Shown: positions 24,001-28,739 of the stretch, piece by piece
Layout: the number at the start of each line of letters is the position of its first letter
How positions within the stretch are numbered: position 1 is the first letter of the stretch
IMG/VR virus record: IMGVR_UViG_2698536397_000009
DNA length: 28,739 bases
Origin: a virus
Lineage: Duplodnaviria > Heunggongvirae > Uroviricota > Caudoviricetes
Reading direction: 5' to 3' (one strand)
Position numbers: made by a program

Positions 24001-27000
24001 ACGTTATGAGTTTCGTGACAATAGCGGGACAATTGTCACGGATATTGATGACAGCGTATGGGCCGGGCAGAATGTTTCTCCGAAAGACAAAGTAAGAATT
24101 GAGGGTGAAATTGATAAAGACCTGAGCAGTGTTGAAGTGGATGTAAAGGCACTGAAATTATTAAAGTAACCGTCCCAGCTTGCTAAGCCCGTCTTACTGA
24201 CGGGTTTTCTGTTTGTTATCACAGTATTTTCAACAAAACACCGAATCTTATCCGGTGCGCTGTAAAAACCCCGTCCTTCAGGGCGTGGAGGATGTCAAAT
24301 GGCAGGGGTGAACATCATCCCGGTTACATCAGATCGCCTAATAACATATCAAGATTATTTTGCTCATAAATGCTATTCGCCATTACCGTTGCTGCTTCAG
24401 CTTAATGAAACGCATAGATCCGCCATGCTTTTTCAGCAAATACGCTGCCATTTGCGCAACTTTTTCTTCATTAAACATAAATCGGCTCTCTGTATCACAT
24501 GAAATGCTCTTTCTGACTATATGTTAATAGCTCCAGTTATTACAGGTCAATGAGTGTTTATTTCTTAATCAGCCCCGCACTTCCGTACGGGGCATGTTCT
24601 GTTACTCCACTCCCACTTTTTTGTTGTACTCGCGGTTAAAGCGATCCACGGCAACCTTCATATCCCGCTCTACCGATTTCACCATCGCCGCCTGCTGCGC
24701 CAGACTGAGAGAACTGTCGGCATAAATGGCATCGCGCTGTTTGCGCAAATCCTTCAGTCTCTTCCGGGTATCCTGCATAAGCCCGTTCATCGACAATTTT
24801 CCGTTGTTCTCGTCAATGAACGCCGTTCTTTCTGCACCGGTCAGACTCTTCAGCTCTGCGTGATACTGCGCAACCTCTGTCATCCGGTCGTACATCTTCT
24901 GCTGGTCTGCATACGGCATCACCTCACCCGAAATTTTCCCCAGGAAGGGCACCTGCTGTTCCGGTATATCAATACCATTCAGCGATTTCACCGCCGCATC
25001 CGTGGTTTTGGAAATGAAGCGCCCTGTCCCTCCGGAGATATAGTCAATCCAGAATATCAGCGATTCCGGTGTGATATCCACCGCGCCGGGACGGTACTGA
25101 CTGCCACCAGAGAACGCATTCAGCCAAGATGCAAACGCCTTGTACGCTTCTGGCGTTGAACGTATTCCCAGCTGGCTGTCAGGTTTTGGTGTACCAAACG
25201 GTATGTTCTCCTGGTAAATCTGCGCCCCCATGAAGTTTTCATTCATGGCAAGGTTCGCAAACGGACGCAGAATGGTCGGCGCTGCATTTTTCAGCAATGC
25301 CCCGGACAGTGTTTCCGACGTCTCACTGCCGATCGGGCTGAATGCCCCCAGGATACCACCGACAACATTACCGGCAGCACGGGATGCCGTCAGGTCACCC
25401 GCCGCCACACCTTCAGCGGTATGCCCGAGCAGGAAGAAAACGTTGTACCCGTAAGGCAGAGGAATACTCCAGTACTCTCCGGCCTTGCCCCCGAACACCG
25501 ATTTCATAATGACGAGGTTACGCTCTTTCACATGAGACGGCACTTTGTCATACCAGTTAACCCCGTCATCATCCTCCCCCGCAACACTGCGGTTAAGCGA
25601 GCCAAGCAGATAACCCGCTCCCACAGCTGCAAGCGCGATTTTCTGCGGTACATTGAGATTCTTCCAGCGAAGGCGCTCCAGTAACGGCCCGTCGCCATTA
25701 AGATGTCCGAGCGTTCTCACCAGGTTTGCCGTCCCCTGAATGCTGGCGTTGGCAAACATATACAGCGAGTTCATCAGCGCTCCCTGCTCACCACGACGAT
25801 TAAAGTTCACCGTCATGTTTTTGGCAAGAGACGCCGCCTGCTGGCGTGACAAACCGGCATCACGGGCGTGTTTATAGGCAGAAAGACGCAGAGCATTTTC
25901 AACCGCCCCGTTGGCATCCTCGACAAGGTTAAGGAACGAATTCCATGCACCGATACTCTGGCCTTTCCATCCTCCCTTCGCCAGCGATACAAGGCGATCC
26001 ATTTCCTTCTGCTGGCCTTCAAGGTCACCCATGTTAAACCAGCCGGTTTTACCTCCGTCCTCAACAAACTCTTTCCACACCTTCTGCCACTGCGCACCTT
26101 TGCCCGTGAGGTTTTTGCCACGCAGACTGGCGTATACGGCTGACATAGCAGAACGGCTGTCTTTCACCACAGCCAGTGCGGATAAGTTATCCAGCCCTTT
26201 CAGTTTGCCGTCGCTCCTTCCCTGCTCCGCCTTCAGATTCATCACCGCTGTCTGCACATCACGGATGAAGTTACTGACCAGGAATTCCGGGTTATACGAC
26301 GTGTTCACCGTTGCCAGGAAGCGGTTAACTTTCCCCAGCGTACGGATTACTGCGTTACTGGTTTCCGGTCCCATATTCTTCATCGCACGCATCAGGCGCG
26401 GATCATGGAGTTTGATGTAGTACGTTTTGCCGTTCTTTTTGGTGGTGAAGTACCGGTCTGCCATCATTGCCATCGCCACCGGACGCTCGACAACTTCGCG
26501 AATGGTTTCACCAGTTTCCTGGTCCTTGCGCTCTGCAATCACACGCATGGTATCCGGTCTGTCATCAGTGAATACCTGCCAGTAATCCTTATCGGGATTA
26601 TCCTGCACCAGCTTCAGGAAGGCGTTACCCACTTCATTTTTGCGACTGCGGATCAGCGATTCGCTCAAGTCCTGTATCGCCTGAGTGGACGGAGACTGTG
26701 CGCGGGATGCACGCCCCATGACCTGCTTACTTTCACGCCCACCGATGGTGAAGCCCTTACCTGTACGGGGCAGTGACACCACACCGTCAACATCCTGCCC
26801 TTTCAAGGGAACGTAGTAACGGTAGGCGTTCTGCCAGGCATCCACCACACCGCTCTCTTCCAGTCCGGCCTCACGGATAAGCTCACGGCGACGGGCCAGC
26901 ATATCGTCAACAATCCCTGCCAGACGGTCATACTGTGCCTGTTTGCCGCTGTTACGTACACGCTGCATGATTTCCGCCGCTTCCGCGTTGGTCATCCCCG

Positions 27001-28739
27001 AACCGCCGTCCGGCATTTTCGGGTTGATTTTCGCGATATGCGCGTTACGTTCCGGCGCGTGACGGGCGTAGAGGTACTCATCCAGATCGGCCTGCGCAAT
27101 TTTGTAGTCCGCCAGTAATTTAGCCAGTGGCTGAACGTAGCGCTCCTTCATCACGTTCAGGTCGTTTTCCGCCTTCCCGTGGAAGAGTTCTTCCGCCATA
27201 TAAGCGTTGTTACTGTCGTCTATTTTTCCGCCAGTTTTACGGATATTCTCCTGAACAGCTTTCAGCACCTGGAATTTATCCTGCATCTGGCGCACAAAAC
27301 GCGATGCAATTGTCTCTTCCGGTGTCAGACTGCTGGTACGGGAGTAATACGGCCCCTTGCGAATATCTTCAGGATAGAGTATTTTATCTACAGAGCCGCG
27401 ATAAGAACGCTCCTCTTTGGGCAATTGAAGCCCACTGTACTGAGGGTTATCGCGGCTTAATTTTTCCTTCCGGTAAAGCGTCAAACCTGCTTTATCCAGG
27501 CTATTAGCTTTGTTCATCCCTCCTTTTGTTCCATATACAGAAGCCACCTTGTTAATTTCTATTCGTTTATCTGTTGCCTTCATGTGCACTGCCGACACCA
27601 CCGGATCACCATTTTTATCCACGGCATCAAGCAGCATCACAACCGCATTTCTTTCTGTCGCGGAACGGTAAATTGCATCCGGATCGTGCATCAGCTCAGG
27701 AAGTCTCTCGATAACATCCATCGGCACCACATGTTTCACGCCATTGGTTGCCTTCCGCACAGTGTCGCGGGAGATAACCAGCGGCAAATCTGGTGCGCCA
27801 AGGTGGCGCAATACCGGCGGCGTACGCCCGATGTTTGCAGTCATTGCACCAGAACGTAACGACTTCATCATTCTGGCAAGGTCATCACGATAACGCTCGC
27901 CCTCACCTTCCGGCACTTTGAACGGATCAGGTTTACCACTACGGGAGTACTGAGACGATGCGTCCGCGCCATCCTCACGCGGCGTGTAACCTTCCCGCAC
28001 ACGCTGGCCTAACGTACGGATGGTCTCGCGAACAAGTCTGATATCGTTCAGTTCCGTCGGCTTCAGTAACCCCGTACGACGCAGTACCCCTTTGACCAGG
28101 GCAACAACACGCTCCCATGCCGCCACGAATTTATTCGGCTGTTTCTCCGCCATATGTGCCAGAAATTCACCCGCCTGCACTTCCGGTGATTCCTTACCAT
28201 AAGACGCATCAACCTTACGCCAGGCTTCACGGATGGTGGCGTTATCACTGTCACGGGTTTTCAGCACGGTCTTAATAATCGTCTGATATTCCGCTGGCGT
28301 GACAACATGCTCCATGGCATGGTGGATAATCTCGTGACGCAACTTCTCGCGTACGGTCCGCCCGTCAGGGATGTTATCCGCCACCAGGACAATTTCTCGT
28401 TTATCCGGACGATAGAATGCGTGCACCCTGCCGTAACCGTCGAACGATTCACCCGCCAGCGCTTCAGCCTCTTTCTGTGACTTCACCACACGGACCTTCA
28501 GGTCACTGTCCTTAATGCCGCTCATCACGCCACGGGCAACCGCTTCAACCTGCGGGACCGGGCTGCCTTTGGCTTCCGCACTACGGTTAACATCCGAAAT
28601 GAGATTACCTTCAGGTGTGCGGGTAACGCCCTTACGGGAATAAAACGCAACGCCCTTGTCCGTCTCACGGGTTTTCAGGGTGCGGAACAGGTGATCGAAT
28701 GCCTCACGAATACCGCCATCCAGTTCCGCATTCGTCGGA

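Follow-up and report, generated by a model that had tools for sequence, protein, structure and literature searches.

The giant late gene of a 933W-type prophage encodes a cysteine-free polyvalent protein with two predicted zincin domains

A giant phage gene of a known family

The 28,739-nucleotide stretch analyzed here (IMG/VR record IMGVR_UViG_2698536397_000009, called the window below) ends in a giant minus-strand open reading frame (ORF) that is still open at the window edge. Judged by sequence comparison, it encodes the C-terminal half of a giant polyvalent protein belonging to a 933W-type (Sepvirinae) prophage. We propose that the protein is packaged in the phage head and ejected as a carrier of effector domains, and that it is cut by its own peptidase domains, a reading to which we give a probability of roughly three in four. 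The gene and its family were described earlier, so that gene and class alike are known, and the giant ORF is not unassignable, as it had been taken to be in an earlier reading of the sequence by itself (referred to here as the sequence-only reading). Identity, architecture, conservation, fold, and composition were established for this protein, and its presence in virions is taken from orthologs and relatives.

Read on the minus strand, window positions 24602-28738 comprise 1,378 sense codons, uninterrupted by a stop, and a closing TAA (24602-24604); so long a stop-free run would arise in random codons with a probability of about 2e-29. The frame that the sequence-only reading had noticed is therefore real and uninterrupted to the edge, but the range that it gave, 24602-28739, is one base out of frame. 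The shorter version in the ORF listing, 24602..28528, results from setting the start at the first GTG within the window. Through an identical locus in E. coli JNEC-KY202 the full gene could be recovered: it is 8,385 nucleotides long and encodes 2,794 amino acids, of which residues 1417-2794 fall inside the window and differ by two amino acids from the JNEC-KY202 record. The ORF shows a 100% DNA match to the coding sequence of WP_000331697.1 in NZ_AP045178, annotated 'LPD5 domain-containing protein'.

The 4.3-kb stretch is matched in 427 complete E. coli genome records and in 186 phage records, the latter nearly all of Shiga toxin (Stx)-converting phages, including 933W, VT2-Sakai, phi24B, and POCJ13. 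DNA identity to 933W L0134 is 95.4%, and over the last 915 residues protein identity to 933W L0134 (AAD25477) and phi24B gp47 is 97.6-97.7% (97.7% to phi24B gp47). The PHROG 616 profile matches colinearly (E=0, 3193 bits), with residues 1-1378 of the window's fragment aligned to profile positions 1417-2793 of 2793. The sequence-only reading could name no family; the protein in fact belongs to PHROG 616 and is one of the polyvalent proteins, and Pfam recognizes four domains in it (LPD5, LPD1, MuF_C, and LPD38). Polyvalent proteins were defined by Iyer, Burroughs, Anand, de Souza, and Aravind (Iyer et al. 2017; PMC5512222), in whose survey LPD38 is limited to phage-type members. In line with this definition, the four Pfam domains score far above their cut-offs and are accompanied by two zincin domains, and the giant gene stands among virion and late genes. 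Delivery into the host along with the DNA, a further trait of the class, is supported indirectly, by gp47 in virions and by the avoidance of cysteine. An NCBIfam search of the ORF gave zero matches, and a search of PDB sequences with the whole fragment returned nothing meaningful.

The position of the gene is shared as well. It had been described from the sequence as the last late-operon gene, at the cargo/late junction of the second prophage, and the same order is found in the window, in JNEC-KY202, and in 933W. In the JNEC-KY202 locus and in phage 933W the giant gene ends the late/morphogenesis strand; beyond it lie opposite-strand accessory genes (ygiW-like, hok/sok, DksA/TraR, and antirepressor genes) and then the prophage end, which is attR in 933W. 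Flanking gene order is alike in NZ_AP045178 and AF125520.

Two other identities were tried and rejected. A tail fiber, tape-measure, or lambda J protein found no support in Pfam, NCBIfam, or PDB sequence similarity, and the PHROG matches were all to giant-protein families; the same lack of similarity to lambda J, Stf, and tape-measure proteins had been noted in the sequence-only reading. For an N4-type virion RNA polymerase (vRNAP), there was no RNA polymerase Pfam match on the full protein, and hhalign gave no homology to the N4 C-terminal domain.

Virion association and cysteine avoidance

A preprint on phi24B (bioRxiv 10.64898/2026.04.10.717836) reports that gp47, a 2,811-amino-acid protein with the same domains, is abundant in purified virions by mass spectrometry and absent from cryo-electron microscopy (cryo-EM) and negative-stain density, and proposes it as an ejection protein. 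In Burkholderia phage JC1, gp69, which has the same C-terminal module and is encoded at the end of the morphogenesis module, was detected by 51 unique peptides in CsCl-purified virions; according to the JC1 paper, the portal, capsid, and head-closure proteins of that phage group resemble those of 933W. In coliphage PTXU04, knock-down of a 2,198-amino-acid protein whose sole recognized domain is LPD38 strongly lowers plating efficiency.

The composition of the protein points in the same direction as these virion data. The full 2,794-residue protein contains no cysteine, against a background of 1.0% in neighboring genes, and cysteine is absent from 114 of 128 giant homologs. None of the four proteins encoded directly upstream (421, 83, 148, and 218 amino acids) has a cysteine either. 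Their genes are the homologs of 933W L0133-L0130 and lie just past the window edge, at L001:28657-31299 on the minus strand (adding 4399 to L001 coordinates gives window coordinates); the 83-amino-acid protein has a glycine-zipper match slightly under the Pfam threshold. The proven ejection proteins of N4 (gp50, gp51, and gp52) are likewise free of cysteine, whereas N4 has 12 cysteines in its DNA polymerase and 8 in its primase. In the Schitoviridae, suppression of cysteine is a published, conserved trait of the ejection operon, ascribed to the passage of its products across the periplasm (PMC11445570). Selection against disulfides in an oxidizing periplasm would explain why the giant protein and its four upstream neighbors have none, and on these sequence grounds the five genes may form an ejection operon.

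Domain architecture

From the N terminus, the full-length protein consists of about 1,050 amino acids of no recognized domain, LPD5, a first zincin domain (HEWFHxxD), LPD1, a second zincin domain (HEIIHH plus a Glu), PBECR/MuF-C, and a 915-amino-acid module that contains LPD38. Pfam places LPD5 at residues 1051-1200, LPD1 at 1361-1440, MuF_C at 1750-1839, and LPD38 at 2477-2682 of the full protein; on the fragment, MuF_C and LPD38 are found at 334-423 and 1061-1266. A P-loop motif (G....GK[ST]) was not found in the full-length protein, in agreement with what had been noted for the part in the window. The features within the window are as follows, all on the minus strand.

24602..28738, minus strand: C-terminal 1,378 codons and stop of the polyvalent protein (open frame; PHROG 616; ortholog of 933W L0134)
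28667..28738, minus strand: tail end of LPD1 (full-length residues 1361-1440, the rest outside the window; Pfam PF18796, E=9e-24 on the full-length protein)
27929..28576, minus strand: zincin-like MPTase-2 domain, fragment residues 55-270 (candidate metal-binding or catalytic residues H135, E136, H139/H140, and E191)
28319..28336, minus strand: HEIIHH motif, an HExxH that also fits the HExxxH register (family alignment)
27470..27739, minus strand: MuF_C/PBECR, a predicted metal-independent RNase, fragment residues 334-423 (PF18819, E=4.5e-18; conserved His336 and Ser400)
27359..27946, minus strand: hypervariable cassette of linker and PBECR, fragment residues 265-460 (exchange between alleles)
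24605..27349, minus strand: conserved 915-amino-acid C-terminal module, fragment residues 464-1378 (end-to-end homologs)
24941..25558, minus strand: LPD38 within the C-terminal module, fragment residues 1061-1266 (Pfam PF18857, E=9e-47)

Two zincin domains

The HEIIH motif that the sequence-only reading had placed about 135 codons from the edge occupies codons 135-139 (window 28322-28336, minus strand). An exhaustive HMMER search with fragment residues 55-270 returned 395 clusters at E<=0.001, nearly all of them inside proteins of 1,500-6,000 amino acids, with a few stand-alone proteins of 200-270 amino acids. In a broad alignment the first His of the motif is kept in 175, the Glu in 177, and the second His in all 179 of 179 sequences, and in an alignment of 37 sequences (A2) these three residues and a downstream Glu (fragment residue 191) are invariant. 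The spacing is HExxxH only in 156 of 175 members and HExxHH in 16 of 175, which form an enterobacterial clade; the HEIIHH of the Stx phages satisfies both the HExxH and the HExxxH spacing. A small first alignment (A1) had suggested that HExxH was not conserved, an impression overturned by the broad sample, in which the family motif is HExxxH. In full-length numbering, the candidate zincin residues are H1551, E1552, H1555/H1556, and E1607. Among the peptidases of phage polyvalent proteins, Iyer et al. (PMC5512222) described the variants HEXXXH and HEXXH-xx-D, for which they proposed a role in self-processing.

Run to E=10 on this region, Pfam gave Peptidase_M76 as its best match, at E of about 0.1-0.2 and under its cut-off. 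An AlphaFold2 model made with the family alignment was confident over residues 1-145, with a predicted local distance difference test score (pLDDT) of 88-98. It begins with a helix, a strand, and a helix, which are followed by two strands and the HExxH helix; of the three helices that come after, the final one bears the invariant Glu. The motif lies within helix 72-91 of the model, and the Glu (model E137, fragment residue 191) lies within helix 131-144. A conserved HExxH/HExxxH on a helix and a fold of a three-stranded sheet with helices, two features expected of gluzincin-type metallopeptidases, are both seen here. As modeled, the HExxH domain in the window is a zincin, nearest to the anthrax lethal-factor-like group, and the fold matches of the HExxH domains are to protein-cutting zincins of the lethal-factor/ArdC/Spartan type, not to cell-wall enzymes. 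With the N4 C1 zincin domain, alignment was obtained only around the strand-HE core.

The best PDB match of the zincin profile was to a chimera of phi29 scaffolding protein and tropomyosin (3mtu, E=0.0011) over a helical stretch, and it was set aside as compositional. It maps to helices of the zincin domain at window 28100-28300 (minus strand), which is curious for a head-internal protein and probably a matter of composition.

Farther upstream, beyond the window edge, the full-length protein has a second such motif at residue 1284 (GALAHEWFHSLDNYF). Its His, Glu, and His, together with an Asp three residues past the motif, are invariant in 25 diverged homologs. This invariant HEWFHxxD matches the HEXXH-xx-D variant described by Iyer et al., by which the protein is predicted to carry two zincin domains. 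A conserved HExxH of zincin fold, the presence in virions of gp47 and of a JC1 protein with the same C-terminal module, and the lack of cysteine together support one suggestion of the sequence-only reading, namely that of an injected virion protein with a zincin-like domain.

A variable PBECR cassette

The MuF-C domain is matched by PF18819 at E=4.5e-18 and 65.7 bits, against a cut-off of 27.6. According to Iyer et al. (2017), MuF-C is a predicted RNase of BECR fold (PBECR), whose active site comprises a His in the first helix and a Ser/Thr in a late strand; in the fragment, His336 and Ser400, each conserved to 90% or more in alignment A1, fit this description. The phi24B preprint (bioRxiv 10.64898/2026.04.10.717836) labels MuF-C a peptidoglycan-digesting metallopeptidase, a label that conflicts with the definition of the family as an RNase-fold domain.

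Together with the linker that precedes it, this domain forms a cassette (fragment residues 265-460) in which the E. coli alleles P0012, P0028, P0202, and P0252 are 26-50% identical, with flanks that are 96-100% identical. At the DNA level, the cassette has 80-90% identity in 321 of 422 complete-genome records, compared with 95-99% for the whole 4.3 kb. Such exchange would fit an effector in an arms race. Salmonella alleles have an extra phosphoribosyltransferase segment inserted upstream of the zincin domain.

A 915-residue C-terminal module

Downstream of the cassette, 83 homologs span the last 915 residues end to end, extending 0-65 residues, mostly under 10, beyond them. In these homologs the module always stands at the extreme C terminus, and the N-terminal cargo is very different. 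By tblastn, the module is found in other phages as well: at 41% identity in Vibrio phages of about 60 kb, at 27-28% in Burkholderia phages Bcep22 and DC1 and in Ralstonia phages, and at 22-23% in Bacillus phages Page and Palmer. An alignment of 42 sequences (A3) has 40 invariant columns, many of them polar, with the conserved strings HAPERN, SGMT, YVPLKG, NPEF..SNF.RD.QTA, NFNRRGE, and NASIQG.

The AlphaFold2 model of the module (pLDDT 84; predicted template modeling score, 0.79) consists mainly of helices, four long ones at the C terminus among them, and has a single small beta domain. The sequence-only reading had thought the C terminus of the protein coiled-coil in appearance; the last 100 or so residues are predicted to form the four long helices, which is consistent with such a look. 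A profile search of PDB sequences with the C-terminal part gave nothing meaningful, and Foldseek found no relative of the module among solved structures in the PDB (best E not below 0.13). A hydropathy scan of the module detected no transmembrane helix, the highest 19-residue value being 1.22. A correspondence to the C2 domain of the N4 vRNAP was tried and rejected, since hhalign gave it a probability of 0.3%.

The module is common to Bcep22, DC1, and Cimandef proteins annotated as 'DarB-like antirestriction', and the protein also has a weak match to PHROG 10089. It could on these grounds be a dispensable DarB-like cargo, injected only to shield incoming DNA from restriction and with no role in DNA delivery, and both the stress that the polyvalent-protein concept lays on counter-defense and the hypervariable PBECR cassette would suit that idea. 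We nevertheless think it unlikely. The N6-adenine methyltransferase and SNF2/DExH helicase that define DarB were not found by Pfam or NCBIfam, there is no P-loop, the sole part in common is the C-terminal module, which is found with quite different cargo, and the LPD38 protein of PTXU04 is needed to infect a laboratory host.

Proposed function

We envisage the head-packaged carrier to work as follows. A few copies would be packed inside the head, probably via the invariant C-terminal module. Upon release of the tail needle, the chain would exit through the portal and tail channel, largely unfolded and domain by domain; a 'beads-on-a-string' passage through a channel of about 35 Å has been proposed for N4 (PMC13434306). 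The chain would pass the oxidizing periplasm in an extended state, and the giant protein may help to build or extend a trans-envelope conduit with the four cysteine-free upstream proteins. The two zincin domains would then cut the polyprotein, host proteins being a less likely target, and cleavage would free effectors (the PBECR RNase and LPD5) to act early on RNA or proteins of the host or its defenses. Ejection, processing, and enzyme activities are what we infer here.

Several observations weigh against this proposal. The virion data for phi24B gp47 come from a preprint. The N4 vRNAP, with its zincin-like domain, is packaged unprocessed, so that self-cleavage is not a given, and the module lacks a transmembrane helix by hydropathy, so that a role as a channel is not evident from its sequence. 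The prophage of the identical genome has an IS3 insertion with its transposase and a truncated tail-tip fiber gene (L001:34057-36797) and is probably defective; this copy may therefore never be packaged and may be inert, though its giant ORF is intact. Finally, the best fold matches of the zincin domain include catalytically dead domains.

The domain might instead be a noncatalytic adaptor resembling the N-terminal domain of lethal factor, its fold being used for docking or for starting translocation. This seems improbable to us: the H, E, and H of the motif are, like the Glu downstream, invariant in 37 diverse sequences and nearly so in about 178, which is the pattern of a retained active site, and the well-scoring domains of this fold also include active Pro-Pro endopeptidases.

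The phi24B preprint proposes another function: the protein would serve ejection in a purely mechanical way, its metallopeptidase digesting peptidoglycan to let the conduit reach the inner membrane. Virion location and cysteine avoidance would suit any ejection role, this one included, and Iyer et al. (2017) note peptidoglycan-directed enzymes in some polyvalent proteins. The metallopeptidase invoked by the preprint is MuF-C, however, an RNase-fold (BECR) domain in the source classification, whereas the actual HExxH domains resemble the protein-cutting zincins named above, and Pfam found no lysozyme, transglycosylase, M23, or M15 domain. We regard this purely mechanical function as quite unlikely.

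Least credible of all is a lysogen-expressed defense or antidefense gene, or a host-range or tail protein, in place of an internal virion protein; an atypical host-range protein and an independent defense/antidefense gene had been among the suggestions of the sequence-only reading. The gene borders the accessory-gene region, and a Panacea-domain gene comes next in some genomes, but the only PADLOC match, to DruE/SNF2 (E=0.00099, 14.7 bits, 154 residues, 158 of 1,829 model positions), was taken as chance, strand and late-operon position are common to this gene and the tail genes, and the phi24B ortholog is found in virions yet is absent from the external cryo-EM density, with no fiber, tape-measure, or J similarity.

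Beyond the proposal of a head-packaged, self-cleaving carrier, a bolder version can be formulated, which we hold to be possible but rather doubtful. The module would be a new 'chassis', in wide use, by which any cargo can be loaded into podophage heads and which afterward becomes part of a trans-envelope DNA conduit, and the two zincins would cleave the chain after ejection, freeing a rapidly swapped RNase cassette directed against RNA-based host immunity. If so, the giant protein of Stx phages would be a programmable protein-injection device.

The 933W-type phages spread Shiga toxin genes in E. coli, and about 14% of their genome (8.4 kb of about 61 kb) encodes the giant protein. If its packing, ejection, and processing were understood, it would become clear how these short-tailed phages get their DNA across the envelope and which host systems they neutralize first. 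A conserved C-terminal module with exchangeable cargo could also matter for phage engineering.

Neighboring genes

Near the giant gene is one for a Hok/Gef toxin (window 23550-23705, plus strand), whose 933W counterpart has the antisense RNA SokW. Between the toxin gene and the giant gene, as in 933W, is a ygiW-like gene (23825-24169). A 31-codon remnant of a Panacea-domain gene (MFNEEKVAQMAAYLLKKHGGSMRFIKLKQQR, followed by a stop) is found at 24383-24478 on the minus strand. In E. coli SCU-104, the giant gene is followed on its own strand by an intact Panacea-domain gene, which encodes 174 amino acids (WP_032144006.1).

The end of the 933W-type prophage lies inside ynfG, and the truncated ynfG is beside ynfE and ynfF. 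What is left of ynfG is an 84-nucleotide 4Fe-4S fragment after ynfF (window 19653-19736), followed by the phage antirepressor gene (about 19737-20180). Elsewhere in the window, rspB (9559-10603, minus strand) is broken into two ORFs, 9559-10011 and 9944-10603, that overlap; the matching RefSeq record annotates it as frameshifted.

Comparison with known systems

At the level of fold, the HExxH domain compares with the ATLF (M34) zincins and the Pro-Pro endopeptidases, with which it has 6-11% sequence identity. It differs from them in its family motif, HExxxH rather than HExxH, and in that no Pfam peptidase model matches it at threshold.

The ejection proteins of the Schitoviridae, including N4 gp50, are giant, packaged in the head, ejected, and free of cysteine, and the protein described here is likewise giant and cysteine-free. 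The N4 structure (PMC13434306) shows a zincin-like HExxH domain followed by a helical domain of about 110 kDa without structural relatives, and the giant protein similarly has a zincin-like HExxH domain and then a helical C-terminal domain of about 1,000 amino acids without a known structural relative. It differs from gp50 in having no RNA polymerase domain, and by hhalign it showed no sequence homology to N4 C2.

The 'DarB-like' proteins Bcep22 gp75 and JC1 gp69 and the Ralstonia GP4-like proteins share with it a C-terminal module of about 900 amino acids, at 27-28% identity over 83-86% of the module. Their genes, too, close the morphogenesis module, and virions of JC1 contain gp69. The cargo differs: theirs consists of transglycosylase, helicase, and methylase domains, and here it is LPD5, two zincins, and PBECR.

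From 933W L0134 and phi24B gp47 the protein differs in length (2,806 amino acids in 933W and 2,811 in phi24B, against 2,794 here), in sequence, with the linker/PBECR cassette as the most divergent stretch, and in residing in a prophage that sits in ynfG and looks damaged. The fragment is colinear with PHROG 616 from its first residue to the C terminus, and the protein has the same Pfam domains as these two and occupies the same place as the last late gene before the ygiW-like, hok, and antirepressor genes. From the phage-type polyvalent proteins of Iyer et al. (2017) there is no difference in kind, although the second zincin domain lacks a Pfam model. Like them, the protein is giant, multidomain, and encoded in a late context, with zincin hubs (HEXXXH and HEXXH-xx-D), PBECR/MuF-C, and LPD1, LPD5, and LPD38.

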